IMG/VR virus record: IMGVR_UViG_3300045988_040927
Span: 1-60,467 of that record
Length of the DNA stretch: 60,467 nucleotides
Reading direction: 5' to 3' (one strand)
Origin: a virus
Position numbers and translations under genes: made by a program. This document shows positions 12,987 to 60,467 of the stretch, piece by piece. Numbering within the stretch: position 1 is the stretch's first letter; every line of letters starts with the position of its first letter. Under the pieces are notes generated by a model, which saw only the letters and a program-made list of their open reading frames with translations, made no database searches and was not told where the DNA came from.

Positions 12987-15900
12987 GTCAAGTAGTTGAT
13001 AAAAGAGTCGTAGAGATGCAGTTCGACAATAGACAGTTTGAAAGTGGTGTTCAGACTTCTATGTCAACACTCGAAAAGCTTAAAAGAAGTTTAAATCTCG
13101 ATGGTGCAGCTAAAGGTTTAGAGTCAGTTAATGCTGCTGCTAAAGATTGCGACATGTCAGGTATTGGAAAAGGTGTCGAAACTGTAAAAGCAAGATTCTC
13201 AGCTTTGCAAGTTGCTGGCGTGACCGCTCTCGCTAATATTGCAAATTCAGCTGTAAACGCTGGTAAAAGATTAGTTTCAGCATTTACGATTGATCCGATT
13301 AAAGATGGTTTTGCAGAGTATGAAACTCAGATGAATGCCGTTCAGACAATATTGGCCAACACACAATCTGAAGGTACAAACGTTAAAATCGTTAATAAGG
13401 CTTTAGATGAACTTAATACATATGCGGATAAGACCATTTATAACTTTACTGAAATGACTCGTAACATTGGTACCTTTACTGCTGCTGGCGTTAAACTTAA
13501 AACTTCAGTTAGTGCTATCAAAGGTATTGCCAACCTTGCAGCTGTTTCTGGTTCGAACTCTCAGCAAGCTTCAACAGCAATGTATCAATTATCGCAGGCT
13601 ATCGCTTCAGGTTCTGTTAAGCTTCAGGACTGGAATTCAGTAGTTAATGCTGGTATGGGCGGTAAAGTATTTCAGGATGCTCTTGTACGAACATCTGAGC
13701 ATTTAAAAACAGGCGCAAAATCGGCCATTAGTGCTAAAGGTTCATTTAGAGAGTCACTAAGAACAGGTTGGCTAACAACAGAAGTTCTTACACAAACTCT
13801 TGATCAATTCTCAACTGCCGCAGATACAGAAAAAGAGTACGAAGCAGCAGTAGCAAAGTTTGTGAAACAGGGATATTCAAAGGAACAAGCTAAGCAGATG
13901 GCTGATATGGCTAGAACTGCTGGTGAAGCTGCAACTAAAGTTAAGACATTTACACAGTTGATGGATACATTAAAAGAAGCCGCTGGTTCTGGTTGGACTA
14001 CAACTTGGCGATTAATAATCGGTGACTTCGAAGAGGCGAAAGGTCTTTGGACTGATGTATCAGACACATTGAGCGATATGATCAACAAATCATCAGACGC
14101 TCGTAATAAGATGGTCGAAGGCTGGGCTAAAGGCGGTGGTCGTGACGATCTTATTGAATCCTTAACAAATGCTTTTGAAGGATTAATGAGCGTAATTAAG
14201 CCTATTAAAGAAGCATTCAGAGAGATATTTCCATCTGTTACATCTGAACAGTTAATAAAATTTACCGAAAATCTGAAAGCGCTTACAGAAAAAATGAAGC
14301 TAAGCGAAGAAAGAGCCGATAAAGTCAAAAGGATTTTTAAAGGTGTATTTGCTATTTTTGATATTGGTAAAAAAGCAATAGTAGCTCTTATAAAGCCATT
14401 TTATGAATTATCGCAGTCTAAAGGATTTAACAGTTTAGCAGATTCTTTGCTTGAAATACTAGCAACAGTTGGTGATTTCTTTACAACTTTAGATAATGGC
14501 TTTAATACTAGTGGTATCTCTGCATTTTTATCAAAAATTACCTCAGGATTTTCAAAAGTATCTTCTGTGATATCAACGTTTTTAGATTCAGCAGTTAGCG
14601 GTTTGAAAAATTTTGGTAATGTTCTATCAACAGTTGGTAAATGGATATCAACCACATTTACTAAAGTATGTAATGCTCTTAAACCTGTATTTACATGGAT
14701 TAAAGATAAACTTTCTTCCGCCTTTACATGGATTAAAGAAAATGTATCCATAGGTGACATATTCGCTGGTTTAGCTGGTGGCGGAATATTTGTAGCATTT
14801 AAGAAATTAGCAGATCTTATAGGTAAAGTAAAAGATATAATTGATGGTTTATTTGATAAAGAAAAATCAGGAGGAATGTTAGATAATTTCTCTAATATTC
14901 TAGATTCAGTTCATAATTCATTAGAATCTTTTACTTCTGGCATCAAAATTGCTTCACTTGTAAGTATCACAGTTGCAGTAGGTATACTTTCTGCTGCACT
15001 TTCTTCTATAGCCAAACTTGATGTAAAAGATGTTGCTAAAGGTCTTGTAGGCATCGGCGCATTATTAGGCATGCTCAGTTTAAGCTTTAAGTCATTAACC
15101 AAGTCGTTAACAAAATTTGATTCTAAAGGCGTTGTTAAATCAGGACTTGCAATGATTGCAATGGCTGTTGCTATTAAAATATTAGCTAGTGCGTTAAAAG
15201 ACATAGCCGAATTACGATTTAAGGATATAGTTAAAGGACTTGTCACCATTGGTGTTGCTTTAGCTGAACTTGTTGGAGCTTTGAAACTGATAGGTAAAAC
15301 TAAAGTATCACTTAAATCAGTATTATCTATGATTATAATAGCTGAAAGTTGTAAAGTCCTTGCTGATGCACTAGCAGATATAGGTAAAATGTCTTGGTCT
15401 GAAATAGGTAGAGGATTAGCTGGAATGGGTGGCGCTTTAGCCGAAGTTTCAGCCGTTGCTGCTATTTTAGGTAAATTTGGAAAAGGCGGCTCTATTGTTG
15501 GCGCTATAGCTATTCTAATCATGGTACAGTCTTTGGATGAAATATCCGATGCGCTAAAGAACATAGGTTCTCTTTCATGGGAAGAAATAGGTAGAGGCTT
15601 AGCCGGTATGGGCGGTGCCTTAGCCGAATTAGGAGTCATTGCTGCTGTTTTAGGCAAATTTGGAGGAATGTCCAGTATAGCTGGGGCAATTTCTGTTGTA
15701 ATTATGACTAAAGCATTGGAACCAATAGCAGATACATTAAGTCAAATAGGCTCATTTTCATGGGATACAATCATAAAAGGCTTAACAGGTATGGGCGTAG
15801 CTCTAGCAGAATTAGGCATAGTGGCAGGAGCTTTAGGTAAAATAGCTGGTTTCTCTGGCATATTGGGCTCTGTTTCAATATTGATTATGGTGCAGTCACT

Positions 15901-28274: not shown

Positions 28275-28312
28275 GGGAGTACGTAAAATACGCATTCCCT
28301 TTTCTTTTTTTT
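28275..28312 (+). terminator. Intrinsic terminator after the holin genes
   Basis: GGGAGTACG-taaaata-CGCATTCCC followed by TTTTCTTTTTTTT. Confidence 0.65.
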
Positions 28313-28316
28313 ACTC

Positions 28317-28343
28317 CGCAAAAATTACATATCCTCTTATGGA
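28317..28343 (+). promoter_or_regulatory. 27-bp conserved motif, copy 1
   Basis: CGCAAAAATTACATATCCTCTTATGGA. It abuts a terminator T-run and lies 25 nt before ATG 28369. Confidence 0.6.
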
Positions 28344-29139: not shown

Positions 29140-30591
29140 TTAGAGGTCTTCTATTTGTTTCTCTAATACTTCTAATCTTTGATTATGGATTGCCTTACGT
29201 TCTACAAATTCGTTATTTGTAATGTCGTCATTTTCCCACGAATCGAATAACTTCGACTTCTTCTTTTCTATCTTACGCTTCTCTTTGACAAGTCTGTCTA
29301 TTTGTTTCTGAATATCGTTCTCGTCTATATCTGGAGAATTTTCTATCTTTACTTCAAAGTCGTCCACATACGTACGCAACGCTTGAGTGACAGCTGCAAT
29401 AACATCCGAGGCGATTGCAGATTTAACTTTACATCCAGTAGTGTTGCTTTTGTGTACGATTCGGTTATTTCTATTTTCTTTATAAGGTTGTAAATGCATT
29501 GACTTGCCACATTTCTTACAGTACACCAAACCTGCAAGAGGGTTTTTAAGCTGCAACCCTGAACGAGTACGATCTTTGTAAAATTTCTTTTGAGCTTCTC
29601 TGAAAGTTTCCTCATCTACAAGAGCATCGTTCATGTGTTTACCATCGTATAGCATATACTGATCTGAATGATATCTTGGACGAGTTATTTTCAGTTCACC
29701 ATTGACCATCGTCTTAATACGCATACGGTTATTCCATCTAACCTTTCCCATATAAACAGGGTTTGTCAAATATGTTTTAACTGAATCTTTAGTCCAATCA
29801 GTATCACCTCTGTAAGTAGGAGCTCCCATAGCTGTTAATCGCTTAGCTATATCGTTAGTTGACAAGTTATCTTTAACTGACCATTCAAATATTTTCTTAA
29901 TGTAAGGAGCCTCAATTTCGTTAGGGACTAGTGTACGCTTTGTCTTAGTCTTTACAATATTGTATCCGTACGGACGATAAGCACCCATGTAATTTCCTTC
30001 GACTACAGCCTGCCTACGACCTCTGTCCATACGTTTGTGGATCATCTTATATTCTCTACGTGACATAAATAGTTCAAATTCCATATATTCTTCGTCTTCT
30101 TGAGAGTGCGCTACATCATATGTTTTGGTTGGAGTTACGACTAATACGCCATTATTCATATTCGAGTATTTAAGACAGTCCATAATTGTTTGGGCATCTC
30201 CTTGATTACCACGAGACAAACGAGTTACTTCAACTATGAGGATACCTTTATATTTTCCTTTGTAGCAATCTTCTAGTAATTTCTGTATCTTAGGTCTGCC
30301 AGCGATTGATTCGCCAGATTCTAACTCGGTGTATATTTCACCAATGTAAAATCCTTTTCTAGCTGCTAACTCTTCTAGCATTTTCCTATGTCTAGCTAGT
30401 GTCTCTCCTTCACCGAGTTTCTCGGCTTCTAAATCAGCTCTGGACTTCCTCAAATAAATCGCATAAACATCCATATCCAAAGCTTTAGATGTTACGTTGT
30501 TCATATCAAATGTTGTCATGGAGTCACTTCCTATATCTATGATGTACTTGCCAAGGGATAAAGTTGGCATCACCTCCTTCGCGTAATTCAC
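29140..30591 (-). CDS. int: Large serine recombinase (integrase), ending at an in-frame TAA
   Basis: Resolvase-type N-terminus (VYAIYLRKSRADLE...), recombinase domain and zinc ribbon (CKKCGKSMH...C), then a coiled coil. The start is ambiguous: GTG 30591, ATG 30570, or ATG 30519 (the last has the best SD spacing). Confidence 0.9.
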   Translation of the reverse strand: MNYAKEVMPTLSLGKYIIDIGSDSMTTFDMNNVTSKALDMDVYAIYLRKSRADLEAEKLGEGETLARHRKMLEELAARKGFYIGEIYTELESGESIAGRPKIQKLLEDCYKGKYKGILIVEVTRLSRGNQGDAQTIMDCLKYSNMNNGVLVVTPTKTYDVAHSQEDEEYMEFELFMSRREYKMIHKRMDRGRRQAVVEGNYMGAYRPYGYNIVKTKTKRTLVPNEIEAPYIKKIFEWSVKDNLSTNDIAKRLTAMGAPTYRGDTDWTKDSVKTYLTNPVYMGKVRWNNRMRIKTMVNGELKITRPRYHSDQYMLYDGKHMNDALVDEETFREAQKKFYKDRTRSGLQLKNPLAGLVYCKKCGKSMHLQPYKENRNNRIVHKSNTTGCKVKSAIASDVIAAVTQALRTYVDDFEVKIENSPDIDENDIQKQIDRLVKEKRKIEKKKSKLFDSWENDDITNNEFVERKAIHNQRLEVLEKQIEDL

Positions 30592-30606
30592 ATTCTCCTT
30601 TATGAA
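30580..30606 (+). promoter_or_regulatory. 27-bp conserved motif, copy 2
   Basis: CGCGTAATTCACATTCTCCTTTATGAA. It overlaps the integrase 5' end on the opposite strand and lies 13 nt before ATG 30620. Confidence 0.55.
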
Positions 30607-30619
30607 AGGAGTGGTTTAT

Positions 30620-30832
30620 ATGTTTGATAAAAAATATAAAAAGACTTTAGAAATACTTGACAGCGAAAATGAAATGTATTATAGGTTGTATCTCAAATAT
30701 TTAGATTTAGCAGATACTTCAAAGGATGAGAAATCAAAAATATGGCATTTGGATAAAGCTAGCGAGTATCGTGAAGTATTTATAGCATTATCAGATTTTA
30801 AAAAAAAACTTTATAAAGAGATGGAGTCCTAA
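30620..30832 (+). CDS. Small hypothetical protein between integrase and repressor
   Basis: 70 aa from ATG 30620, 8 nt after AAAGGAG. A motif copy lies at 30580 and a terminator overlaps the stop. Confidence 0.5.
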   Translation: MFDKKYKKTLEILDSENEMYYRLYLKYLDLADTSKDEKSKIWHLDKASEYREVFIALSDFKKKLYKEMES

Positions 30833-30849
30833 CAAGGGCTCTTTCTTTT
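30824..30849 (+). terminator. Terminator overlapping the stop codon (GAGTCC-TAACAA-GGGCTC module)
   Basis: The hairpin includes the TAA stop; a TTTCTTTT run follows. Confidence 0.6.
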
Positions 30850-32160: not shown

Positions 32161-32391
32161 ATGATGGTAGGTAAAACTAAAAGAGAGATTAGAAATAAGA
32201 CGAGACTAGCTTATTGCCTAGTTGATATTTTGGAGTATGACATCGACAATCTTAAGAACGAGGCATATGATTGCGATCCAAATATTCTTATGGAAACTGT
32301 TCAAGAGACCAAAACAACACTACAGAATATTGTAGATATTATTACCGAACTGGAATACATCTTATATTTAGAGAAACTTAAGGAGTCCTAA
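32161..32391 (+). CDS. Hypothetical protein
   Basis: 76 aa with an AGGAGGAG SD. The stop is embedded in a terminator hairpin. Confidence 0.5.
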   Translation: MMVGKTKREIRNKTRLAYCLVDILEYDIDNLKNEAYDCDPNILMETVQETKTTLQNIVDIITELEYILYLEKLKES

Positions 32392-32408
32392 CAAGGACTC
32401 TTTTTTTT
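32383..32408 (+). terminator. Terminator overlapping the stop codon (GAGTCC-TAACAA-GGACTC module)
   Basis: Perfect 6-bp stem followed by T8. Confidence 0.7.
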
Positions 32409-32409
32409 G

Positions 32410-32436
32410 CGCGAAATTAACAGGGTGTATTATGGG
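32410..32436 (+). promoter_or_regulatory. 27-bp conserved motif, copy 3
   Basis: CGCGAAATTAACAGGGTGTATTATGGG. It abuts a terminator T-run and lies 33 nt before ATG 32470. Confidence 0.6.
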
Positions 32437-32679: not shown

Positions 32680-32686
32680 GAATCTC

Positions 32687-32713
32687 CGCAGTATATACAA
32701 CTCCTATTATGAG
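32687..32713 (+). promoter_or_regulatory. 27-bp conserved motif, copy 4
   Basis: CGCAGTATATACAACTCCTATTATGAG, 15 nt before ATG 32729. Confidence 0.55.
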
Positions 32714-32912: not shown

Positions 32913-32949
32913 AGAGCCTGGTTAAACCTGGGCTCTTATCTTTTGTTTT
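32913..32949 (+). terminator. Intrinsic terminator
   Basis: AGAGCC...GGCTCT followed by TATCTTTTGTTTT. Confidence 0.5.
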
Positions 32950-32975
32950 CTACCAAACTTAGAAGGGTGAGACAG

Positions 32976-33728
32976 ATGAACAAAACAATTTACAAAGTTA
33001 AAGGATTTTTGAAACATCAGTCTCCAACGATCTTGACTTGTGTTGGGGCTGCCGGTGTGGTTGTGACTTCAGTGATGACCGCTAAGGCAACTATCAAAGC
33101 AACAAAATTATTAGAAAAAGCTGAGACAGAGAAGGGAGAAAACTTGACGAAGAAGGAGAAATTTAAAGTAGCAGCACCAGCTTATATTCCTACAGTTATT
33201 GTCGGCGTATCCACAATCGCTTGTATCTTTGGGTCTAATGCTCTTAATAAACGTAAGCAGGCGGCCTTAGTCAGCGCTTATAAAGTACTGGACCGATCTT
33301 ATAAAGAATATAGAGAAAAGGTTGAAGAGGTTTACGGCGAAGGTGCTGATAAAGTTATTAGAAAAGAAATTGCCAAAGATAAGTACGAACAGCAGAAACC
33401 AAAAGACACTGGTAAGGAACTGTTCTATGACGATTTCTCTAGACGATATTTTGAGTCAACAAAAGAAGATATTTTGGCTGCTGAGTATGAAATTAACAAA
33501 CGATTAGCGTATCATGGCGGAGCATGTTTGAATGAGTTCTATCAATTGGTTGGCTTAGGTCCGGTTACAGACGGAAAAGAGACTGGATGGAATACGGGAC
33601 AAATGATGGATATGTATTGGGATGCTTGGTTAGAGTTTTATCACGAGGATGTAGAATTACGTGATGGACGTAAATGTACAAATTTATATTTTACTGAACC
33701 AGTATTAGACTTCGAAAATTACTGTTAA
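32976..33728 (+). CDS. Two-TM membrane protein, paralogue 1 of 4 (DUF6353-like family, from memory)
   Basis: ATG 32976; the ORF-track start at 32943 lies inside a terminator. TM hairpin: SPTILTCVGAAGVVVTSVMTAKAT and YIPTVIVGVSTIACIFGSNALNKRKQAAL. C-terminal motif LNEFYQLVGL..G..GW. Confidence 0.7.
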   Translation: MNKTIYKVKGFLKHQSPTILTCVGAAGVVVTSVMTAKATIKATKLLEKAETEKGENLTKKEKFKVAAPAYIPTVIVGVSTIACIFGSNALNKRKQAALVSAYKVLDRSYKEYREKVEEVYGEGADKVIRKEIAKDKYEQQKPKDTGKELFYDDFSRRYFESTKEDILAAEYEINKRLAYHGGACLNEFYQLVGLGPVTDGKETGWNTGQMMDMYWDAWLEFYHEDVELRDGRKCTNLYFTEPVLDFENYC

Positions 33729-33731
33729 GTA

Positions 33732-33758
33732 CGCATAAATAACACGCTCCTTTATGAA
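33732..33758 (+). promoter_or_regulatory. 27-bp conserved motif, copy 5
   Basis: CGCATAAATAACACGCTCCTTTATGAA, 13 nt before ATG 33772. Confidence 0.6.
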
Positions 33759-33939: not shown

Positions 33940-33965
33940 GAGCCTTACATAGGCTCTTTCTTTTT
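33940..33965 (+). terminator. Intrinsic terminator
   Basis: GAGCCT-tacat-AGGCTC followed by TTTCTTTTT. Confidence 0.65.
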
Positions 33966-33970
33966 ATATT

Positions 33971-33997
33971 CGCAAAAATAACATAGCACTTTATGAA
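33971..33997 (+). promoter_or_regulatory. 27-bp conserved motif, copy 6
   Basis: CGCAAAAATAACATAGCACTTTATGAA. It follows a terminator and lies 14 nt before ATG 34012. Confidence 0.6.
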
Positions 33998-34011: not shown

Positions 34012-34341
34012 ATGAAAACATTAAGCAAATATGCAAGACTATTTGACAACACAAATGTAAATTGGAATGCCAATGTGTTAGATAGTCGGAGGTTTTTAAA
34101 GTGTGTAGAACGCTATGCTAATGACCTTTTGAAACGCAGAGGAACAATATTTTTAAATGACATTTATGAAATGTTGGGATTCGAAAGAACGCAAACAGGT
34201 CAAGTTGTAGGGTGGCACTATTCTAAAGAAAATCCGATTGGCGATAATATGGTTAAATTTGATTTGCATGGAGGGAAAAAAGGTAGTATTGAAATAGACT
34301 TTAATGTTGATGGAAGCGTCATTAATTATTTAAAGGATTAG
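34012..34341 (+). CDS. Stand-alone copy of the C-terminal domain of the paralogue family (no TM region)
   Basis: FLNDIYEMLGFERTQTGQVVGWHY...IEIDFNVDGSVINYL aligns with the C-terminus of 39828..40835 (FLNEVYEMLGIPATKAGQVVGWIY...ILLDFNVDGYILDKV). Confidence 0.65.
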   Translation: MKTLSKYARLFDNTNVNWNANVLDSRRFLKCVERYANDLLKRRGTIFLNDIYEMLGFERTQTGQVVGWHYSKENPIGDNMVKFDLHGGKKGSIEIDFNVDGSVINYLKD

Positions 34342-34485: not shown

Positions 34486-34746
34486 TTGTCATTATTTACA
34501 TACGTATGCCTTGGTTTATTAATCATCGCATGCCTCGTTATAGCAGTGTTAGCGATTCAGATTTCAATACTTAAGTCACGATTAAGCAAAGATCCAATAG
34601 GTGTGCTTAAAATCGATAGTTCTGACATCGTAGATGGACCTCTATTATTTTTGGAATTGAATCGAGACGTTGACACAGTGAAGCTAATGCACGATAAAGA
34701 AATAATGTTAAAAGTTGATGCCACAGACTTCGTTTCGCACAAATAA
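34486..34746 (+). CDS. Single-pass membrane protein
   Basis: TTG start after AAAGGAGAGTG, with an N-terminal TM helix (VCLGLLIIACLVIAVLAIQISIL). Confidence 0.5.
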   Translation: MSLFTYVCLGLLIIACLVIAVLAIQISILKSRLSKDPIGVLKIDSSDIVDGPLLFLELNRDVDTVKLMHDKEIMLKVDATDFVSHK

Positions 34747-34762
34747 CACTTTCTATTATGGA
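34736..34762 (+). promoter_or_regulatory. 27-bp conserved motif, copy 7
   Basis: CGCACAAATAACACTTTCTATTATGGA. It overlaps the stop of 34486..34746 and lies 41 nt before ATG 34804. Confidence 0.55.
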
Positions 34763-36235: not shown

Positions 36236-36257
36236 CCAGCAATGGCTTTTCCTTTTT
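36234..36257 (+). terminator. Terminator overlapping the stop codon (AGCCA-GCAA-TGGCT module, second copy)
   Basis: The same ~29-bp string as at 34334..34362. Confidence 0.6.
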
Positions 36258-36258
36258 A

Positions 36259-36285
36259 CGCGAAATTTGCAAATACTATTATGAG
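36259..36285 (+). promoter_or_regulatory. 27-bp conserved motif, copy 10
   Basis: CGCGAAATTTGCAAATACTATTATGAG. It abuts a terminator T-run, with an 88-nt structured leader before ATG 36374. Confidence 0.55.
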
Positions 36286-36373: not shown

Positions 36374-37135
36374 ATGAAAGGAGCAAAAGTACGTTTATAT
36401 TTAAAACGTAATTCACCAACAATAGTGTCTTGTATAGGTGCAGTTGGAGTCGTAGCTACTACTATTGCAGCAATAAAGGCTACACCTAAAGCTTTGTCAC
36501 TGATCGAGGATGAGAAAGCATGTATTAATAAGCAACTCGAACAAGGCGGATGGCAAACTAGAATTGATAAACTGACTACTGCTGAGACTATTAAAGCTAC
36601 TTGGAAATGTTATATTCCAACGGCGGTAATAGGACTTTCCACAATAACCTGTATATTTGGAGCAAATGCACTAAATAAGAATCAACAGGCAGCACTTACA
36701 AGCGCTTATATTCTTTTAGATAATGCCTATAAAGAGTATAAGAGTAAAGTTAGTAGCTTACTCGGTGAGGATGCTAATGTACATATTCAGAAGTCTATAG
36801 TCGAAGATCGGTATGCCGATGCTGATATTTCAGTGTCTGATGAAAACCAATTGTTCTATGAATACAATTATGGAGAATTCTTTGAACGTACAAAAACTCA
36901 AGTATTAAATGCTGAGTATAGCTTCAACCAAAAATTTATATCTGATGGATATGCCACATTAAACGACTTCTATGAATTGCTCGGTTTACCTAAAACACAA
37001 GAAGGCGAAATTATAGGTTGGTCAGTTCAAGAAGGATATTTGTTAGTAGACTTTGAACATGAACTATTAGAGATGGAAGATGGTATGGAATGTACAATTA
37101 TAAATCTACCAGTTGCACCATCTATTGCATATTAA
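36374..37135 (+). CDS. Two-TM membrane protein, paralogue 2 of 4
   Basis: SPTIVSCIGAVGVVATTIAAIKAT, YIPTAVIGLSTITCIFGANALNKNQQAAL and LNDFYELLGLPKTQEGEIIGW are all collinear with 32976..33728. Confidence 0.7.
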   Translation: MKGAKVRLYLKRNSPTIVSCIGAVGVVATTIAAIKATPKALSLIEDEKACINKQLEQGGWQTRIDKLTTAETIKATWKCYIPTAVIGLSTITCIFGANALNKNQQAALTSAYILLDNAYKEYKSKVSSLLGEDANVHIQKSIVEDRYADADISVSDENQLFYEYNYGEFFERTKTQVLNAEYSFNQKFISDGYATLNDFYELLGLPKTQEGEIIGWSVQEGYLLVDFEHELLEMEDGMECTIINLPVAPSIAY

Positions 37136-37138
37136 GTT

Positions 37139-37165
37139 CGCAAAAATTACACGTTGTATTATGGA
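37139..37165 (+). promoter_or_regulatory. 27-bp conserved motif, copy 11
   Basis: CGCAAAAATTACACGTTGTATTATGGA, 16 nt before ATG 37182. Confidence 0.6.
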
Positions 37166-37181: not shown

Positions 37182-37352
37182 ATGAATAATTTAAAAGCAC
37201 TTAAAATCGTTGGAGCAGTATTATCTGTAATCGGTGCTGGTGTATCGCTTGGAATGAGCGCAATCAGCGACAAGAAAACAGATCTTGAGCTTGACGAAAA
37301 GGTGGCACAAAAAGTAGCAGAAGCTATCGCTAAAGCAAGTGAGGAGTCCTAA
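37182..37352 (+). CDS. Small single-pass membrane protein (56 aa)
   Basis: ATG 37182 follows GGAAAGGAGTG. TM helix LKIVGAVLSVIGAGVSLGMSAI. A terminator overlaps the stop. Confidence 0.5.
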   Translation: MNNLKALKIVGAVLSVIGAGVSLGMSAISDKKTDLELDEKVAQKVAEAIAKASEES

Positions 37353-37371
37353 CAAGGGCTCTTCAGTTTTT
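37344..37371 (+). terminator. Terminator overlapping the stop codon (GAGTCC-TAACAA-GGGCTC module, third copy)
   Basis: Hairpin followed by TTCAGTTTTT. Confidence 0.55.
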
Positions 37372-37382
37372 GGGAGGACATT

Positions 37383-37718
37383 ATGGACGAAATAATAATG
37401 AAGATTCAAAAGTATATAGACGAGTCCTTATTTGAACCTCATATAAATTGGCCAAAATACGAATTTCTCAGACGTAGTTATTCACGCTGGGCTGCCAATG
37501 AGATTTTATGTCGTATTTTAAAGGAGTCATTAAAACCACCGCCGTATATTACAGGTTTTGAACCAGAGACTCCATCAGCGATTATCAGAGAGTTTATAGA
37601 CGAAATGGATTACTATTCCGACATAAGCACCGATAATAAAAAACAGCGTATATTCATTATTGCTAAGGAAACAGCAATAGACATTAACACATTTATATTT
37701 GAAAGGAGACTAGCATGA
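37383..37718 (+). CDS. Hypothetical protein
   Basis: 111 aa with a GGGAGGA SD, coupled to the next gene by an ATGA overlap. Confidence 0.5.
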   Translation: MDEIIMKIQKYIDESLFEPHINWPKYEFLRRSYSRWAANEILCRILKESLKPPPYITGFEPETPSAIIREFIDEMDYYSDISTDNKKQRIFIIAKETAIDINTFIFERRLA

Positions 37719-38494
37719 GTAAAGTTAATTTATCTACAATTGCTAAAAATGTTCACGCATCAACTGTAAAACATCAGCCAGAGATTCTTACTGGTATAGG
37801 TATTGCAGGTATGCTTACGACAACAGTCATGGCTGTAACTGCGACACCTAAAGCGTTAGATCTTATGGCGGAGATCAAAGAAAACCATGAGGAGGACACA
37901 GACAAAAAAGCCTATGCTAAAGATATTGTTCTTAGAGTAGCGCCTGTTTATATTCCGGCAGCTATTATTGGCATATTGTCAGCATCCTGTCTAATTGGCG
38001 CTAATTCAGTAAACCTTAAACGTAATGCAGCATTGGCTACAGCATACACTCTTTCTGAGTCAGCATTGAATGACTATCGAGGTAAGGTAATTGAAACGCT
38101 CGGAGAGAAAAAGGATAGAGCAGTAAGAGATGCTATCGCTAAAGATAAGATCGAACAGAATCCGGTTGTAGACAGAGAGGTCATCATTACTAATAATGGT
38201 GAAACTCTTTGCTACGATGTTCTCTCTGGACGATATTTTAAATCTGATATTGAGAAACTTAAGCGGGCTACAAATGAACTTAATCGCAAAATGTTAAGTG
38301 ATAATTATATTTCCCTTAACGAGTTCTATGATGAAATAGGCTTGAACTATACGAAAGTCGGTGAAAATATCGGATGGAATATTAGTCGAGGATATATTGA
38401 ACTCGACTTTAGTTCTCAGTTAACAGCCAAAGGCGAACCATGTTTGGTTATTGATTATCGTGTAGAGCCTCGCTATAACTATGACCGATGCTGA
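37715..38494 (+). CDS. Two-TM membrane protein, paralogue 3 of 4
   Basis: QPEILTGIGIAGMLTTTVMAVTAT, YIPAAIIGILSASCLIGANSVNLKRNAAL and LNEFYDEIGLNYTKVGENIGW. Confidence 0.7.
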   Translation: MSKVNLSTIAKNVHASTVKHQPEILTGIGIAGMLTTTVMAVTATPKALDLMAEIKENHEEDTDKKAYAKDIVLRVAPVYIPAAIIGILSASCLIGANSVNLKRNAALATAYTLSESALNDYRGKVIETLGEKKDRAVRDAIAKDKIEQNPVVDREVIITNNGETLCYDVLSGRYFKSDIEKLKRATNELNRKMLSDNYISLNEFYDEIGLNYTKVGENIGWNISRGYIELDFSSQLTAKGEPCLVIDYRVEPRYNYDRC

Positions 38495-39827: not shown

Positions 39828-40835
39828 ATGAATAAAACTGAAATCATGAACAAAATCACAAGAGCAGCTCATAAGACTGGTTTTGCTCTTAAACAACACA
39901 GTCCTGAAATTCTTGCAGTGACTGGTACAGTAGGCGTTGTAGCAAGCGCAGTATTGGCATGTAAAGCTACAACAAAAGTTAATGGTATTATAGAAGACAC
40001 AAAATCTCAAATCCACGAGCTTCATCTTGTAGCTTCTGCGGCTGGTATTGAAGAAAAGAAAGAAGAATATTCAGCTGAAGACGCTGAAAAGCTCGAAGTA
40101 TTAAAAATGCATACCGTAGTTCAAGGATATACGGCTGAAGATTCTCGTAAAGATTTAACTCTTATTTATGTTCAAACAGGCATTAAATTTATTAAGTTAT
40201 ATGCACCTGCTATCATTCTTGGAGCTGCATCTCTTAGCTGCTTGCTTGCTTCTAATAACATTTTACGTAAGAGAAACGCTGCTCTCGCTGCCGCATACGC
40301 TACAATCGACAAAGGTTTCAAAGAATACAGAAGTCGCGTTGTTGAACGTTTCGGTGAAGAAGTTGATAAAGAACTTAAATACAATGTTAAGGCTCAAGAG
40401 ATTGAGGAGACTGTTATTGACAAAAACGGCAAAGAAAAGACTGTTAAAAAGACAGTAAAGGTTGCAAATCCAAATGAACACAGTGAATACGCTCGTTTCT
40501 TTGACGATGGTTGCACTGGATGGGAAAAGAACTCAGAGTATAATTTAGCTTTTCTTAACTCTCAGCAAAACTATGCAAACGACAAGCTCAGAGCTCAAGG
40601 ATATTTATTCCTCAATGAAGTTTATGAGATGCTCGGTATTCCAGCAACAAAAGCAGGTCAAGTTGTAGGTTGGATTTATAATCCGGATGATCCAAAGAGC
40701 GGCGATAACTATGTTGATTTCGGTATCTATGATATTTATAACGAAAAATGTCGTGACTTTGTAAACGGTTATGAACGTACAATCTTACTTGACTTCAATG
40801 TTGATGGCTATATTCTCGACAAAGTTGCATTCTAA
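39828..40835 (+). CDS. Two-TM membrane protein, paralogue 4 of 4 (longest, with an insertion between the TM helices)
   Basis: SPEILAVTGTVGVVASAVLACKAT, YAPAIILGAASLSCLLASNNILRKRNAAL and LNEVYEMLGIPATKAGQVVGW. Confidence 0.7.
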   Translation: MNKTEIMNKITRAAHKTGFALKQHSPEILAVTGTVGVVASAVLACKATTKVNGIIEDTKSQIHELHLVASAAGIEEKKEEYSAEDAEKLEVLKMHTVVQGYTAEDSRKDLTLIYVQTGIKFIKLYAPAIILGAASLSCLLASNNILRKRNAALAAAYATIDKGFKEYRSRVVERFGEEVDKELKYNVKAQEIEETVIDKNGKEKTVKKTVKVANPNEHSEYARFFDDGCTGWEKNSEYNLAFLNSQQNYANDKLRAQGYLFLNEVYEMLGIPATKAGQVVGWIYNPDDPKSGDNYVDFGIYDIYNEKCRDFVNGYERTILLDFNVDGYILDKVAF

Positions 40836-54751: not shown

Positions 54752-54922
54752 TTTTGGCAATTCTGTGCCCACTTTTGGGTTTAAAAATCCGGGCTTTGCC
54801 CACTTTTAATTTGGCCACGACTATTTGGTAATGATATTTTGCTGACAAAAATGGCCATTTGCCCACTTTCTGCCCAAGTTTGAGAGATAAAAGTGGGCTT
54901 GAAACGGTCCTAATTTGGCCTG

Positions 54923-54987
54923 ATTTATACAATATCTTGTATATTTTGGGCTAAAATTGGGCTATTTATACAATATCTTGTATATTT
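54923..54987. repeat. Two 24-bp direct repeats ATTTATACAATATCTTGTATATTT (54923-54946 and 54964-54987)
   Basis: Exact copies 41 bp apart. Each contains the inverted repeat TATACAA-TATC-TTGTATA. Confidence 0.85.
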
Positions 54988-55039
54988 GAGTGCTCTCTGC
55001 CCACTTGCCCACTTTTTTTCTTTAATTCTTTAAAAAATA

Positions 55040-55069
55040 ATAAATTATAGTAAATATACTATAATTTAT
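55040..55069. repeat. AT-rich palindrome with 13-bp arms
   Basis: ATAAATTATAGTA-aata-TACTATAATTTAT. Confidence 0.8.
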
Positions 55070-55147
55070 AAAAATAAAAGAATAGGGCCGATAAAAGTGG
55101 GCTTTTGGCCACAAGCATATTCTTGACTAAGAAAGGAGTAAAAGCTT

Positions 55148-55886: not shown

Positions 55887-55947
55887 GTCTTAGATAGTAG
55901 AGCTCCCACCATAAGGGATGTCTTGAGGTCTAAGGCTTTTTATTTTT
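55887..55947 (+). terminator. Leader hairpin 2 plus T-run (attenuator-like)
   Basis: GTCTTAGA...TCTAAGGC enclose ~34 nt. TTTTTATTTTT follows, ending 4 nt before the SD of the VRR-NUC gene. Confidence 0.5.
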
Positions 55948-55969
55948 GAAGAAAGGAGGCTCATTGTTA

Positions 55970-56275
55970 ATGGCCAGAAGTTCTAGACTGGAAAGCGGTT
56001 TTCAAGACAAGCTTATAAAAGATCTAAAAACTATATTTCCAGGTTGCATGATTTTCAAGATGGACCAAATTCAGGGTATTCCTGATTTACTCGTTTTGTA
56101 TAAAGATAAGTGGGCCTCTTTGGAATGTAAAAAATTCGCGAACGCTAGGAAACGTCCAAACCAAGAATATTATGTGGACCTGATGAACAAGATGTCATTT
56201 TCTCGTATCATCTATCCTGAAAATAAAGCGGAGGTATTACATGAACTTCAACAATCATTCAATGCTCGAAGGTAA
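55970..56275 (+). CDS. VRR-NUC domain nuclease
   Basis: ATG 55970 follows AAAGGAGG. GIPDLLVLYKDKWASLECKK is the PD-(D/E)XK core of VRR-NUC. Confidence 0.7.
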   Translation: MARSSRLESGFQDKLIKDLKTIFPGCMIFKMDQIQGIPDLLVLYKDKWASLECKKFANARKRPNQEYYVDLMNKMSFSRIIYPENKAEVLHELQQSFNARR

Positions 56276-56798
56276 ACATGCATTTTTAGGAGCTAGCAAA
56301 TATCATTGGATCAACTACGATGCTGATAAAGTAGCTGATTCGTATTCTAAGTTTCTCGCTGTTCAAAGAGGAACAGAATTACATGACTTTGCAGCTCAAT
56401 GTATTAAACTTGGGCAAAAACTTCCAAAGTCTAAAAAGACTTTAAATATGTATGTGAATGATGCAATCGGCTTTAAGATGACACCAGAGCAAGTCTTATA
56501 TTATTCAGAGAATTGTTTTGGTACAGCCGATTCTATTTCTTTTAGAAATGGTTTGCTAAGAATTCATGATTTAAAGACTGGCGTAATACCAGCACACATG
56601 GAGCAGCTTATGATCTACGCTGCTCTTTTTTGTTTGGAATATAAAGTTAAACCGTCTGAAATTGATATGGAGCTTAGGCTCTATCAATCGGACAATGTTT
56701 TATATCATAATCCAACAGCTGAAGATATTGTTCCTATCATTGATAAGATTATATCTTTTGACAAGATTATAACAAATATTAAATTAAGGGAGGGTTGA
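56241..56798 (+). CDS. PD-(D/E)XK-type nuclease (RecB/Cas4-like fold, no Cys cluster seen)
   Basis: GTADSISF...LLRIHDLKTG gives a D...D-x-K arrangement. It overlaps the VRR-NUC gene by 35 nt. Confidence 0.5.
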   Translation: MNFNNHSMLEGKHAFLGASKYHWINYDADKVADSYSKFLAVQRGTELHDFAAQCIKLGQKLPKSKKTLNMYVNDAIGFKMTPEQVLYYSENCFGTADSISFRNGLLRIHDLKTGVIPAHMEQLMIYAALFCLEYKVKPSEIDMELRLYQSDNVLYHNPTAEDIVPIIDKIISFDKIITNIKLREG

Positions 56799-56802
56799 TC
56801 CT

Positions 56803-59577
56803 ATGAATCCTGTTGCTGAAGATATTCTATCCTATTATGGATGCGGTTCTGATGAAGAATCATTAGAACACTACGGAACGCCAAAGCGTTCTGGTAGATA
56901 TCCTTGGGGTTCAGGAGAAAACCCTTATCAGCATAGCGGCGATTTTCTTAGTAGAGCTGAAACTTTAAAAAAGCAAGGTCTCAGTGAAACAGAAATCGCT
57001 AAGAGTATGGGTCTTACAACAACTCAGTTTAGAACTCAAAAATCATTGGCTAAAGATGAAAGAAGAGCTTTGGAAGTTGAGACTGCTAAAGGACTCAGAG
57101 CAAAAGGATATTCGTTAAATGAGATTGCAGAAAAGATGGGTTATAATAACGATTCATCTGTAAGATCATTACTTAATGAAGGTTCTGAAGCTCGTATGAA
57201 TCAAGCTAGGAAGACAGCTGATTTCCTTAAAGATCAGATCGATAAAAAAGGTATGATTGATGTCGGAACTGGTGTTGAGCGTGAACTCGGTATATCTAAA
57301 GAAAAGTTGAATCAAGCGTTGTATATTCTTGAGATGGAAGGATATCCGGTTTATGGCGGTGGCGTTCCACAAGCTACCAATCCTGGTAAGCAAACAAACC
57401 TTAAAGTTATTTGTCCACCTGGAACTAAGCATAAAGATATTTATGACTATGACAAGATTAATTCTGTCAGGGATTATATTTCTTACGATGATGGCGAGAC
57501 CTTTAAGAAGGGATTTGTATATCCTGAAAGCTTAAATTCAAAGCGTCTTAAGATTCGCTATGCCGAAGAAGGCGGTCTTCAAAAAGATGGCGTTGTCGAA
57601 CTAAGAAGAGGCGTAGACGATTTATCTTTAGGTAATGCACATTATGCTCAAGTTCGTATTATGGTTGACGGTAAGAAGTACATAAAAGGTATGGCTGTAT
57701 ATTCTGATGACATGCCTGATGGTGTAGATGTTATTTTTAATACTAATAAAAAACAAGGAACACCAATGGGTAAAGTTCTTAAGGATATTAAGGATGATCC
57801 TGACAATCCATTCGGTTCTCTTATTAAGGAACATGGCGGTCAAAGCTACTATATTGGTAAAGATGGCAAAGAACATCTGTCTCTTATTAATAAGCGAGCT
57901 GATGAATCCGACTGGAGCGAATGGAAGGATGCTATTCCATCTCAGTTCTTGTCTAAGCAAAACGTATCCTTAGCAAAGAGACAGTTGAACTTAGCAGAGT
58001 ATGACAAAGTATCTGAGTTTAAAGATATTTGTTCAATTAATAATCCTACTGTTAAGAAGAAATTGTTAGATACATTTGCTAATGATTGCGATTCAGCAGC
58101 TGTTCATTTACAGGCAGCGGCTTTACCTAGACAAAAGTATCATGTTATTTTACCAATGACATCAGCAAAGGATAATGAGATATATGCTCCTAACTATAAG
58201 AATGGTGAGCAAGTAGCTCTAGTTCGATATCCTCATGGTGGTACATTTGAGATTCCTATATTAACTGTTAATAATAAATTAGCCGAAGGCAAGAGCGTAA
58301 TAGGTAGAACTTCAAGTGATGCTGTAGGTATTAACAGTAAAGTAGCTGAAAGATTATCTGGCGCTGACTTTGATGGTGACACTGTTATGGTTATTCCAAC
58401 AGGAGGTAAGATTAAGATTACCTCTACACCAACATTAAAAGGTCTTAAAGGATTTGATCCTAAAGATAGTTACAGTGCTGATGAAGTAAAGGTTGACTCG
58501 CATGGTGTCGAACATTTTTATCGTAATGGTAAAGAGTATCGTCTGATGAGTGAGAAGTATAAACAGAAACAAATGGGTGTTGCTTCTAATCTCATTACAG
58601 ATATGACATTGAAAGGTGCAAAGCCAGATGAATTAGCTAAGGCTGTTCGTCATAGCATGGTTGTTATTGATGCAGCAAAACACAAGCTTGACTATAAGCA
58701 AAGTGAGATCGATAACGATATTGCTGCTTTAAGAAAGAAATACCAAGGTCATATTGGTTCAGATGGTAGATACCATGAAGGAGCATCAACTCTTATTTCT
58801 AGAGCCAAGTCAGAGACTCAAGTTCTTAAAAGAAAAGGCAGTCCTATGATTGATCCTAAGACTGGTAAGGTTTCATATAAGGAAGTACACGAGGAGTATA
58901 TTGATAAGAATGGTAAGGTACAGATACGTACCCAGAAGAGTACAAAGATGGCAGAGACTAATGATGCCCGCACTCTTATTTCTGATGCTGATACTCCTAT
59001 GGAACGCCTATATGCTGACTATGCTAATAAAATGAAGTCCTTAGGTAATCAGGCCCGTAAGGAAATGGTTAGTACAGGTAGGATTCCATATTCTTCTACG
59101 GCCAACGCTACATATAAAAAAGAAGTTGACCATTTAAAAGCACAACTAAATATAGCTTTAAAAAATGCTCCTAGAGAAAGGCAAGCCCAGGTTATGGCTA
59201 ACGCTATTGTTAAAGCTAAGAAACAAGATAATCCTGACATGACTAAAGAAGAGCAAAAGAAAATAGGTCAACGAGCTTTAACCGCATCTAGAAATAAAGT
59301 TGGCGCTAAACGAGTATCAATTGAGATCTCTGATAAGGAATGGGAAGCTATTCAAGCAGGTGCTGTTAGCGAAAATATACTTAAAAAGATACTAGATAAT
59401 ACTGATATAGATAAGATTAGAGAAAGAGCTACACCTCGTTCTACTACATCTATCAGTACAGCTAAAGCTAATAAGATCAGTACCATGAAAGCTTCCGGTC
59501 ATACAACAGCAGAGATAGCACAAGCTCTTGGCCTATCAACATCGACTGTATCAAAGTACTTAAACGGAAAGGCGTGA
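56803..59577 (+). CDS. Single-polypeptide two-barrel (YonO-like) RNA polymerase with three fused HTH modules
   Basis: - A beta-like DPBB signature DGKKYIKGMAVYSDDMPDGVDVIFNTN at nt 57667-57747.
- A beta-prime-like VALVRYPHGG...SGADFDGDTVMVIP, with ADFDGD at nt 58363-58380.
- HTH-like repeats GLSETEIAKSMGL, GYSLNEIAEKMGY and GHTTAEIAQALGL. Confidence 0.7.
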   Translation: MNPVAEDILSYYGCGSDEESLEHYGTPKRSGRYPWGSGENPYQHSGDFLSRAETLKKQGLSETEIAKSMGLTTTQFRTQKSLAKDERRALEVETAKGLRAKGYSLNEIAEKMGYNNDSSVRSLLNEGSEARMNQARKTADFLKDQIDKKGMIDVGTGVERELGISKEKLNQALYILEMEGYPVYGGGVPQATNPGKQTNLKVICPPGTKHKDIYDYDKINSVRDYISYDDGETFKKGFVYPESLNSKRLKIRYAEEGGLQKDGVVELRRGVDDLSLGNAHYAQVRIMVDGKKYIKGMAVYSDDMPDGVDVIFNTNKKQGTPMGKVLKDIKDDPDNPFGSLIKEHGGQSYYIGKDGKEHLSLINKRADESDWSEWKDAIPSQFLSKQNVSLAKRQLNLAEYDKVSEFKDICSINNPTVKKKLLDTFANDCDSAAVHLQAAALPRQKYHVILPMTSAKDNEIYAPNYKNGEQVALVRYPHGGTFEIPILTVNNKLAEGKSVIGRTSSDAVGINSKVAERLSGADFDGDTVMVIPTGGKIKITSTPTLKGLKGFDPKDSYSADEVKVDSHGVEHFYRNGKEYRLMSEKYKQKQMGVASNLITDMTLKGAKPDELAKAVRHSMVVIDAAKHKLDYKQSEIDNDIAALRKKYQGHIGSDGRYHEGASTLISRAKSETQVLKRKGSPMIDPKTGKVSYKEVHEEYIDKNGKVQIRTQKSTKMAETNDARTLISDADTPMERLYADYANKMKSLGNQARKEMVSTGRIPYSSTANATYKKEVDHLKAQLNIALKNAPRERQAQVMANAIVKAKKQDNPDMTKEEQKKIGQRALTASRNKVGAKRVSIEISDKEWEAIQAGAVSENILKKILDNTDIDKIRERATPRSTTSISTAKANKISTMKASGHTTAEIAQALGLSTSTVSKYLNGKA

Positions 59578-59584
59578 ATCGACA

Positions 59585-59830
59585 ATGACGAATGAATGTA
59601 TGTTAACAACAGTTGACAATCCTTTTGATCCTTTCACACAGTTTGATTTATGGTTTCTGTTTGATGTTGAGAAAGGTTACAACAGTTGTGCTTACTTAGA
59701 TAGAATTGCTAAAACATCTGATCAACTCTCTGACAAAGAGAATGAAGAAGAGATTGAAAGAGCAATTGATGAAATTATTAAATATGATTTCATGAACATT
59801 TACAAAAAAGTTAAAAAAGAAGCAGAATAA
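59585..59830 (+). CDS. Hypothetical conserved phage protein
   Basis: 81 aa. The TTVDNPFDPF..FD.W..FD..KGY pattern recurs in Firmicutes phages (from memory). Confidence 0.5.
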   Translation: MTNECMLTTVDNPFDPFTQFDLWFLFDVEKGYNSCAYLDRIAKTSDQLSDKENEEEIERAIDEIIKYDFMNIYKKVKKEAE

Positions 59831-59904
59831 TTCAAATATTTTTGATTAAATTTGTTTCAAAAGCGATGAAAACTGAAAATAAAATTTTAAAAAATATTTT
59901 TAGG

Positions 59905-60060
59905 ATAGTGGGGGGTCTCCGAAAATCGCACCCCCTACCCACATCGCGGCGGCCCTCAAAAATTCTCCGGGGGAAAATTTGAGGAAACCATTTATATTTT
60001 GGCCGGGTGTTTCGCCTCGGCCTATTTCTCTATACAGCATTTAAGAGGGACCACGAGGCT
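59905..60060. other. GC-rich structured non-coding island (candidate cos/packaging site or structured RNA)
   Basis: Hairpins GGGGGGT...ACCCCCT (59909-59937), CCTCAAA...TTTGAGG (59954-59983) and GGCCG...CGGCC (60001-60022). By eye the GC content is far above the genome background. Confidence 0.35.
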
Positions 60061-60189
60061 ATTTATATTTCCCTATACGTGTTTTGTTGCTTTCGTTTTC
60101 ATAAGTCCGCTGTGGTTACTCCATTTACAATTTACTCCTTTCGGTAAAAGTATTCTAATAGTTTCGTGAGTCCTTTTAAATGCTGTATA
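60031..60189. repeat. 14-bp inverted repeat TATACAGCATTTAA / TTAAATGCTGTATA separated by 131 bp
   Basis: The arms are at 60031-60044 and 60176-60189, just upstream of ATG 60229. Confidence 0.75.
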
Positions 60190-60228
60190 AAAGTATATTT
60201 AAATTTATTAAGAAAGGGTGAAAACTAA

Positions 60229-60467
60229 ATGCGAACATTGTCTTATAAAGTTGAAGGTCAGCGACTTGAGCCTATTGGCAATCATAGTGGTGTCAAAGCT
60301 GGGTCAAAAGGATATTTAAGAGCTCAATTTAAGTTCAACGAAGACTGGGATGGATGCATAAAAGTTGCATCTTTTTTTTATAAGGGAGTAGAGTATGCAT
60401 GTAAATTAGATAAAAACGATTCATGCGATATTCCAGCAGAAGTTCTAGTAGGTTCAAGTTATAGTAT
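60229..60467 (+). CDS. 5' part of the wrap-around structural gene (Ig-like, BppU-N-like); continues at 56..134
   Basis: ATG 60229 lies 8 nt after AAAGGGTG. There is no stop before the window end. About 105 aa in total after joining across the 55-bp overlap. Confidence 0.7.
   Translation, partial: MRTLSYKVEGQRLEPIGNHSGVKAGSKGYLRAQFKFNEDWDGCIKVASFFYKGVEYACKLDKNDSCDIPAEVLVGSSYS
60413..60467. repeat. 55-bp terminal overlap (identical to 1..55)
   Basis: See the entry for 1..55. Confidence 0.9.

Follow-up and report, generated by a model that had tools for sequence, protein, structure and literature searches.

A predicted two-barrel RNA polymerase with terminal helix-turn-helix modules and a recurrent promoter-like motif in phages of two bacterial phyla

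Introduction

How the minimal single-chain relatives of cellular RNA polymerases (RNAPs) find their promoters is an open question, and is stated as such for YonO. The same question is raised by the window analyzed here, that is, the whole 60,467 nucleotides (nt) of IMG/VR virus record IMGVR_UViG_3300045988_040927, in which one gene encodes a 924-amino-acid (aa) protein with RNAP-like catalytic signatures and helix-turn-helix (HTH) units at both ends, and in which a promoter-like DNA motif recurs ahead of genes. Is this protein the phage's own transcriptase, and does it read the motif? We consider it probable that the protein is a DNA-dependent, single-chain, two-barrel RNAP acting as the phage's own transcriptase on promoters read by its HTH units, with virion delivery possible. 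Its family offers a testable answer to the promoter question, in the form of fused HTH readers and a short candidate promoter recognizable across two bacterial phyla.

A sequence-only reading of the window had presented the addition of terminal HTHs to two-barrel motifs as unusual, but a preprint had already described this combination for this family (bioRxiv 10.1101/842583; Koert et al., 2019–21), reporting a DxDGD loop, an HHpred link to the RNA-dependent RNA polymerase (RdRP) family, a relationship to YonO and to crAss-like enzymes, and terminal HTH domains on either side of the protein. The window protein is a further member of this in silico-recognized family, and the headline novelty is smaller than claimed. 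That description is computational throughout and is silent on promoters, motifs, and terminators.

Catalytic core and fold

The polymerase gene and the features within it are as follows.

56803..59577, + strand: polymerase open reading frame (ORF), PHROG 4291, 924 aa, ATG start; predicted single-chain two-barrel RNA polymerase with terminal HTH modules
56869..56916, + strand: N-terminal motif HYG..(K/R)SGRYPWGSG, aa 23-38; invariant columns in a low-confidence, probably disordered segment
56977..57048, + strand: HTH1, aa 59-82, GLSETEIAKSMGLTTTQFRTQKSL; model helices 62-68 and 73-100
57106..57177, + strand: HTH2, aa 102-125, GYSLNEIAEKMGYNNDSSVRSLLN; model helices 105-112 and 117-124; recognition helix DSSVRSLL
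57547..57903, + strand: predicted first (beta-like) barrel region, aa ~249-367; invariant YAQVR285I, YxK295G, and DMPDGVDxxFNTNK segment
58135..58398, + strand: predicted second (beta-prime-like) barrel region, aa ~445-532; R475-x-P477-H and metal-binding loop A521-D-F-D-G-D526
59458..59568, + strand: HTH3, tri-helical, aa 886-922; repeat unit aa 899-922, GHTTAEIAQALGLSTSTVSKYLNG; recognition helix STSTVSKYL

The protein matches PHROG 4291 ("RNA-dependent RNA polymerase") with E = 0 and 1313 bits, residues 16-922 aligning to profile positions 7-907 of 909. Both catalytic signatures that had been read from the letters of this one ORF lie at the positions first given, namely DGKKYIKGMAVYSDDMPDGVDVIFNTN in the beta-like segment (aa 289-315, nt 57667-57747), and VALVRYPHGGTFEIP (aa 471-485) with ADFDGD (aa 521-526, nt 58363-58380) in the beta-prime-like segment. 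Family alignments were made with 17 and 80 members (49–92% identity). In the 80-sequence alignment, Y281, Q283, V284, R285, K295, G296, N313, and K316 are invariant on the first barrel side, as are R475, P477, H478, G520, A521, F523, D524, G525, and D526 on the second, and D522 is conserved in at least 90% of members. Because the signature residues are invariant across the family alignments, the quoted motifs are, on this comparative evidence, selected features rather than chance strings. The spacing from R475 to the catalytic-loop D is 47 residues, versus 45 in QDE-1 (residue numbers from PMC2919709); R285, K295, K316, and D262 are all invariant among the 80 sequences, and R285, K295, and D262 are candidate counterparts of QDE-1 R738, K743, and D709.

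An AlphaFold2 model built from the 80-sequence alignment (mean predicted local distance difference test score [pLDDT] 79, predicted template modeling score 0.63) has strand-rich segments at aa 249-367 and 445-532. Foldseek against the PDB returned QDE-1 as best match (E 2.7e-6, probability 1.0), followed by maize and Arabidopsis RDR2 (E 1e-5 to 3e-4, probability 1.0) and a tail of weak matches to beta-prime subunits of bacterial, eukaryotic, and viral multisubunit RNAPs; the best match among viral models was an "RNA dependent RNA polymerase" (E 1.7e-7). Since the best fold matches of the model are QDE-1/RDR2 and then beta-prime chains, the assignment to a single chain with a beta-like before a beta-prime-like barrel, as first proposed, is supported at the level of a predicted structure. 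The first-barrel region is placed by the strand pattern of the model, the invariant columns, and the whole-chain fold match to QDE-1/RDR2.

Sequence searches against known polymerases returned little. The sole and marginal phmmer match in the PDB was 8H2N (E 0.057), the tape-measure-fused virion RNAP of Thermus phage P23-45, with the GADFDGDT loop aligned (GADFDGDTVMVIP against GVDFDGDTLVVLP). The family hidden Markov model (HMM) retrieved HTH repressors and zero polymerases from the PDB sequences with hmmsearch, Pfam found HTH domains only on the whole protein and nothing on the isolated core (aa 151-860), and hmmscan did not reproduce the link to RdRP PF05183 that the preprint obtained via HHpred. 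The protein had also been called YonO-like, a label that stands for the architecture and fails for homology: hhalign of the 80-sequence profile against YonO gave a probability of 1% with just 19 aligned columns, outside the catalytic motifs, and YonO-type proteins were absent from the Foldseek matches. Membership in the YonO family was rejected for lack of profile-level similarity.

The HYG..(K/R)SGRYPWGSG motif is the best-conserved N-terminal stretch of the polymerase, though left disordered by the model (pLDDT <50 for aa 1-44). Targeting, cleavage, and the binding of a partner are conceivable roles for this peptide. A loosely similar string, RVPRGFEGGGRFR, follows the portal domain in the portal-fusion relatives described below.

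Terminal helix-turn-helix modules

That HTH modules stand at both ends of the protein is borne out by the AlphaFold2 model, in which all three units adopt a helix-turn-helix (HTH3 helices at 886-897, 902-909, and 913-920), and by Pfam for HTH3, which exceeds the thresholds of HTH_23, HTH_7, HTH_3, and HTH_24. Pairwise BLASTP relates HTH1 to HTH3 (E 2e-5) and HTH1 to HTH2 (E 1e-4), and detected no similarity between HTH2 and HTH3. The recognition helices are conserved family-wide, with S118, S119, R121, and L123 of HTH2 kept in all aligned members but Lactococcus phage P092.

The modules had been described as sigma-r4-like and as unusual, and neither description held. Sigma70_r4_2 scores 30 bits on the whole protein from two stretches, ranking under HTH_38 and HTH_23; the isolated C-terminus falls below threshold for both Sigma70_r4_2 (21.8 vs 25.7 bits) and Sigma70_r4 (17.8 vs 24.1 bits), and HTH3 scores against HTH_38, HTH_23, HTH_7, and HTH_3 equal or exceed that against Sigma70_r4_2. 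By these profile comparisons, HTH3 is a generic tri-helical HTH. Essentially every one of the 251 phage homologs introduced below has the units, as do the top 150 search representatives, which by sequence comparison makes them a trait of the family and not a peculiarity of this phage.

A promoter-like motif in the window

The claim that the genome carries a matching multi-copy DNA motif proved real. A position weight matrix (PWM) census found 14 copies of a 27-34-nt motif scoring 28–41 bits, compared with 0–1 matches above the 14-bit cut-off in shuffled controls. All copies are on the + strand, which is the gene strand, all lie between 28.3 and 55.8 kb, and the same census found none in the 28-kb structural module.

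28310..28343, + strand: motif copy, 40.8 bits, directly after a terminator hairpin
30573..30606, + strand: motif copy, 32.4 bits; start codon 13 nt past the motif end
32403..32436, + strand: motif copy, 32.6 bits, directly after a terminator
32680..32713, + strand: motif copy, 29.5 bits, after a terminator
33725..33758, + strand: motif copy, 35.6 bits; ribosome site starts 2 nt past the hexamer
33964..33997, + strand: motif copy, 32.4 bits, after a terminator
34729..34762, + strand: motif copy, 35.6 bits
35643..35676, + strand: motif copy, 40.7 bits
35951..35984, + strand: motif copy, 36.7 bits, after a terminator
36252..36285, + strand: motif copy, 32.8 bits, after a terminator
37132..37165, + strand: motif copy, 38.6 bits
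38490..38523, + strand: motif copy, 28.3 bits
48924..48957, + strand: motif copy, 34.5 bits
55807..55840, + strand: motif copy TTAGCTTCGCGAAAAAAACATGCCCTTTTATGGA, 39.5 bits, heading the endonuclease/exonuclease/polymerase operon

Each copy stands 13–105 nt before a ribosome site and start codon, and six of the 14 are directly 3' of hairpin-plus-T-run terminators. Terminator-like sites are enriched at 28–40 kb (22 vs 5.8 ± 2.2 expected), and sigma-70-like sites are not enriched in that interval. In five copies the ribosome site starts 2–4 nt past the hexamer near the motif's 3' end; a transcription start 7 nt downstream would delete this site and a start at the invariant G after the hexamer keeps it.

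Could the motif simply be a host sigma-A promoter, perhaps with an activator site, and the protein mainly an HTH regulator whose core has another or vestigial role? This explanation draws on the hexamers TATAAT in Arthrobacter and Gordonia phages and in P092 and TATTAT in seven of the 14 window copies, and on the annotation of most SEA-PHAGES records as "HTH DNA-binding domain protein". Sigma-70-family factors require A at −10 position 2; among 127 unique copies from the Clostridia lineage, however, the hexamer is TTTTAT, without that A, in 79, the following base is G in 127 of 127, and the conserved TTCGCR block stands 14 nt upstream of the hexamer rather than 16–18. Given the TTTTAT majority, the invariant G, the 14-nt spacer, and the ribosome sites 2–4 nt past the hexamer, the motif is, judged by its sequence, a poor host sigma-A promoter. 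A 26-nt motif with identical spacing across actinobacterial and Firmicutes hosts would not be expected of a host promoter either, and the invariant catalytic residues over ~1,225 clusters argue for an active enzyme. We therefore regard this explanation as highly improbable. A sigma-70 layout, TTCGCA-N17-TATGGA, was also tried on the motif and dropped, the −10-like hexamer lying at motif positions 26-31 behind a 14-nt spacer.

Distribution of the family and its motif

Full-length homologs were found by tblastn in 251 GenBank phages (38–57% identity), including phages of Arthrobacter, Gordonia, Streptomyces, Lactococcus, Curtobacterium, Microbacterium, Rhodococcus, and Faecalibacterium and human-associated siphoviruses, where they are annotated as "HTH DNA-binding domain protein" or "RNA-dependent RNA polymerase". 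A search with HYG..(K/R)SGRYPWGSG as the family signature pattern located relatives in 358 species-representative bacterial genomes, the closest being prophages of Lachnospiraceae, Ruminococcus, and other Clostridia, cultured strains included, and an exhaustive HMM search gave 1,225 clusters at 50% identity (E ≤1e-30). Phages of Arthrobacter, Gordonia, Streptomyces, and Lactococcus provide culturable members.

The motif accompanies the polymerase over much of this range. Scanning 80 prophage loci (1.45 Mb, polymerases 60–74% identical) with the window PWM gave 163 matches on the polymerase-gene strand and 0 on the opposite strand, and in most loci a 27–38-bit copy precedes the polymerase gene by ~940 nt. 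The layout CGC-N7-ACA-N5-TWTWAT-G/A is shared by Clostridia prophages and by Arthrobacter, Gordonia, and Lactococcus phages, with block spacing constant throughout (CGC to ACA 10 nt, ACA to hexamer 5 nt). Arthrobacter phage KeaneyLin has at least eight copies of CGCGTAAATTACA-N5-TATAAT-GA, one of them before the endonuclease/exonuclease/polymerase operon; a copy stands at the same operon position in Gordonia phage OhMyWard and an oral siphovirus (contig89), and a degenerate one in Streptomyces phage DrGrey and Microbacterium phage Count. Among Lactococcus phages, P092 carries 9–10 copies of TTTTACAYACCC-TATAAT-GA and 1706 about 12 copies of C[G/A]CA-N6-ACA-N5-TATAGT-AG. The motif was not found in the GC-rich portal-fusion contigs, which carry structural modules only. 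Searching the literature for the motif as a literal string turned up no account of it, and the cross-phylum association of polymerase and promoter is apparently undescribed so far.

Because a motif of ~26 nt is conserved across hosts differing in phylum and GC content, its reader should, on sequence grounds, be phage-encoded. One contrast bears on which part of the protein might do the reading. In P092 the upstream CGC block is missing and HTH2 reads PGSVTNYAQ, the sole aligned member to have lost S118, R121, and L123, whereas 1706, from the same host species, keeps both the C[G/A]C block and ESSVR in HTH2. This covariation of CGC block and HTH2 is suggestive, a lead and not proof.

The reader might instead be another phage protein (phrog_4303, DUF6353, or phrog_4079), with the polymerase as the catalytic engine and its HTHs used for anchoring, duplex or strand handling, or packaging. 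The non-structural proteins common to the window phage, P092, and KeaneyLin comprise DUF6353 paralogs, phrog_4079, a primase-polymerase, a single-stranded DNA-binding protein, a helicase, two nucleases, the polymerase, and phrog_4303, so several uncharacterized proteins are co-conserved across three lineages; the small phrog_4303 ORF always lies 3' of the polymerase gene, portal-slot relatives keep an intact core without any HTH, and the need of YonO for extra factors is likewise unsettled (PMC5467207). Among the shared non-structural proteins, however, recognizable DNA-binding domains occur in the polymerase only. Conservation of the HTH recognition helices is moreover strong across phyla and parallels that of the motif, and HTH2 diverges exactly where the CGC block is lost. 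On balance we think a separate reader unlikely.

Terminator hairpins with the loop context CC-TAACA-(A/C)GG are common to the window phage and KeaneyLin.

30823-30842, 32380-32403, 37340-37365: shared-loop terminator hairpins in the window
near 3560, 3850, 4840, 5690, 5990: the same hairpins in KeaneyLin (L090)

This recurrence suggests that a conserved termination or processing signal may travel with the polymerase and promoter. In P092 (L089), at ~5600-5700 and ~5990-6090, two motif copies are followed by tRNA-like sequences of ~75 nt and then a T-run; their D-arm and T-arm strings are TAGCTCAGAGGTAGAGC ... GGTTCGAGTCCC, and ARAGORN calls no tRNA.

Genome neighborhood

The window is a circular assembly, bases 1-55 being identical to 60413-60467. 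The gene coordinates and this circularity confirm that the polymerase gene is packed behind two nucleases and upstream of the structural genes, as had been read from the sequence.

55946..56275, + strand: VRR-Nuc-type endonuclease, phrog_93, first gene of the operon, supported by synteny
56241..56798, + strand: Cas4/RecB-type exonuclease, phrog_3953, 278 bits, ending 4 nt before the polymerase ATG
59585..59830, + strand: conserved 81-aa ORF, phrog_4303, always 3' of the polymerase gene; possible partner

The two nuclease genes overlap (56241-56275). On the circle, the polymerase gene is preceded by the endolysin gene and followed shortly by the packaging and structural genes, with terminase, portal, capsid protease, tail, and tape-measure genes downstream at 4.2–18.5 kb. 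The order nuclease, nuclease, polymerase, small ORF recurs in five phages of four host genera plus Lactococcus, and phrog_4303 is also 3' of the homolog in P092, OhMyWard, KeaneyLin, DrGrey, Count, and 1706.

This setting bears on whether the enzyme might be RNA-templated or make primers, working with the nucleases, helicase, and primase-polymerase rather than transcribing genes. QDE-1 and RDR2 are its best structural matches, its gene shares a conserved block with those for an endonuclease, an exonuclease, a helicase, and a primase-polymerase, and a repeat-rich non-coding region lies upstream. Yet the RdRP label comes from homology only, the phage already encodes a primase-polymerase, and three HTHs together with a strand-specific, gene-proximal motif before 14 units fit transcription and not an origin. 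The single-chain two-barrel enzymes of phages that have been characterized (YonO, and gp96 and gp64 of P23-45) are reported to be DNA-dependent transcriptases. Another such transcriptase is gp66 of the crAss-like phage phi14:2. An RNA-templated or priming role thus seems very unlikely to us.

The upstream region in question is a non-coding stretch of ~390 nt (window 54760-55110) between the endolysin gene and an XRE-type regulator gene, with five exact and two near copies of TGCCCACTT and two identical 24-bp palindromic sites, ATTTATACAATATCTTGTATATTT, at 54923 and 54964; an origin or a regulatory switch is conceivable here. A similar repeat-rich non-coding region of ~700 nt occurs in phage Count (L006:1320-2035), and KeaneyLin has a 691-nt gap in the same place, upstream of the nuclease/polymerase operon. 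Past the small ORF, a second non-coding stretch of ~400 nt (59831-60229) contains G/C runs (GGGGGGTCTCCGAAAATCGCACCCCCTACCCACATCGCGGCGGCCCTC) unusual for a genome of 36% GC and a GC-rich hairpin at 60001-60022, has no Rfam match, and could be a cos/pac region or a structured RNA. Over the window, Rfam at gathering thresholds and ARAGORN found zero RNA genes.

DUF6353/phrog_2152 is represented by five paralogs, one a C-terminal fragment and most behind a motif copy, with homologs in P092 and KeaneyLin.

32943-33728, 34012-34341, 36374-37135, 37715-38494, 39828-40835: DUF6353/phrog_2152 paralogs

The first large gene past the polymerase region on the circle, a 589-aa ORF at 134-1903, has no PHROG match at E ≤1e-3, and the tape-measure gene (12962-18544) contains two in-frame repeat arrays at 15365-17367 with periods of 183 nt (six copies) and 150 nt (four copies).

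Hints of virion delivery

In Lactococcus phage 1706 (EU081845.1), the homolog orf75 (1,029 aa, L094 34083-37172) is annotated "structural protein". That record applies the plain label to orf20, 21, 62, 71, and 75 and marks predicted functions as "putative", which suggests that the plain labels have an empirical basis; literature searches on phage 1706 proteomics found nothing usable. Two of the labeled proteins, orf62 and orf71, are encoded outside the morphogenesis module.

Two metagenomic outliers, P0369 and P0388, each known from one contig, retain the entire core (about 49% identity), its catalytic motifs intact, and their genes lie in or beside the portal slot of head-morphogenesis modules.

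L092:1866-7235: P0369, ~1,800 aa, core behind an N-terminal region of ~1,050 aa
L093:229-5658: P0388, likewise ~1,800 aa with the core behind a ~1,050-aa N-terminal region

A Pfam Phage_portal domain (102.7 bits) stands at the start of the N-terminal region of P0369, whose gene lies between an unannotated, terminase-sized gene (533 aa) and a Peptidase_S78 protease plus capsid gene. Both contigs have 69–71% GC, and in both the gene is followed by an ORF of ~200–220 aa and then the Peptidase_S78 prohead protease. Taken with the 1706 annotation, the portal-slot relatives hint at virion delivery, and the position of the window gene, after the endolysin and before the packaging genes, is compatible with late synthesis and packaging.

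Proposed mechanism and its weighing

In the mechanism we propose, the catalytic core (aa ~130-880) would combine a beta-like barrel (R285, K295) with a beta-prime-like barrel (R475-x-P477, D522-x-D524-G-D526), flanked by two tandem N-terminal HTHs and one C-terminal HTH. The HTH units would read a three-block promoter, CGC-N7-ACA-N5-T(W)T(W)AT-G/A, whose blocks are about one helical turn apart, and the enzyme would then open the DNA at the AT-rich hexamer and initiate on the adjoining downstream purine, which is invariant. The 14 candidate promoters would drive small early and replication genes as well as the endonuclease/exonuclease/polymerase operon itself, hairpin terminators would separate the transcription units, and virions may carry the enzyme into the cell along with the DNA, where it would start the program.

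Several points weigh against this reading. The best fold matches, QDE-1/RDR2, include RNA-templated enzymes, and the fold does not settle template choice. Within the HTH set, HTH2 is weak by Pfam (HTH_38, E 0.005) and HTH1 alone is not significant (E >0.1); P0369 and P0388 have none of the three units, and the core can accordingly work, or be targeted, without HTHs. Conservation extends to DUF6353 proteins, phrog_4079, and the 81-aa ORF, any of which could confer specificity, and the covariation of HTH2 with the CGC block is no more than a lead, since it reflects a single evolutionary event. Three of the 80 prophage loci (L042, L046, L071) lack the motif within the available flanks, and the hexamer in the Arthrobacter, Gordonia, and P092 copies is exactly the sigma-A −10 consensus, TATAAT, such that host RNAP may take part there. 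If the polymerase operon depends on the motif copy that it carries, a prophage would need another source of its first polymerase molecules. Literature searches found no experimental study, biochemical data, or transcript data for any family member.

A bolder version of the phage-transcriptase reading would make the enzyme self-sufficient and virion-carried, with each of its three HTHs reading one promoter block and with enzyme and promoter co-inherited as a pair across phages of Actinobacteria and Firmicutes. We advance this version tentatively and think it somewhat doubtful as a whole. If true, it would be the first case of sigma-independent promoter readers joined covalently to a two-barrel RNAP, and would amount to a naturally occurring orthogonal polymerase/promoter system that operates in two phyla. 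Although abundant, common gut Lachnospiraceae prophages included, the family is mostly annotated "HTH DNA-binding protein"; confirmation that fused HTH readers are paired with the short promoter would re-annotate thousands of genes, explain the transcription program of a large phage supercluster, and offer a compact polymerase/promoter/terminator set for Gram-positive synthetic biology.

Comparison with known systems

The closest comparison is with the family described by Koert et al. from the actinophage/Lactococcus/Faecalibacterium phage supercluster (PHROG 4291; FP_oengus AUV56548.1), which the window protein matches end to end, with the same DxDGD loop, the same N- and C-terminal HTHs, and the same synteny of endonuclease, exonuclease, polymerase, small ORF, and genome end. 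The window copy differs in its source, a Clostridia-type gut phage that is temperate and encodes a serine integrase. YonO of the Bacillus prophage SPbeta, a proven DNA-dependent RNAP for phage genes whose promoter recognition is unresolved (Forrest et al., 2017; PMC5467207), is likewise a single phage-encoded chain with a beta-like before a beta-prime-like barrel, to which the window family adds three HTH units.

Neurospora QDE-1 and plant RDR2, which are cellular RNA-dependent/DNA-dependent RNA polymerases, share with the window protein the two-barrel catalytic architecture with a DxDGD loop and a whole-chain structural match. They are, however, eukaryotic silencing enzymes at about 10–12% identity and a global TM-score of ~0.3, without HTH modules and without promoter-driven gene transcription. 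P23-45 gp96 (8H2N) and phi14:2 gp66 are single-chain, two-barrel, virion-delivered enzymes acting on early genes, a mode of delivery that is no more than possible for the window protein; the DFDGD loop of the window protein aligns weakly to 8H2N. These two enzymes have no reported fused HTHs (the P23-45 RNAP paper does not mention "HTH" or "helix-turn") and are not among the top fold matches.

T7-type RNAPs use compact promoters of about 23–27 bp, in which the AT-rich block to be unwound directly precedes the purine at which transcription starts, and hairpin terminators dedicated to them. They are a functional analogue only, in that one chain joins promoter recognition to catalysis; their right-hand, Pol I-like fold is unrelated, and they recognize promoters with a specificity loop and an AT-rich recognition loop, not with HTHs.

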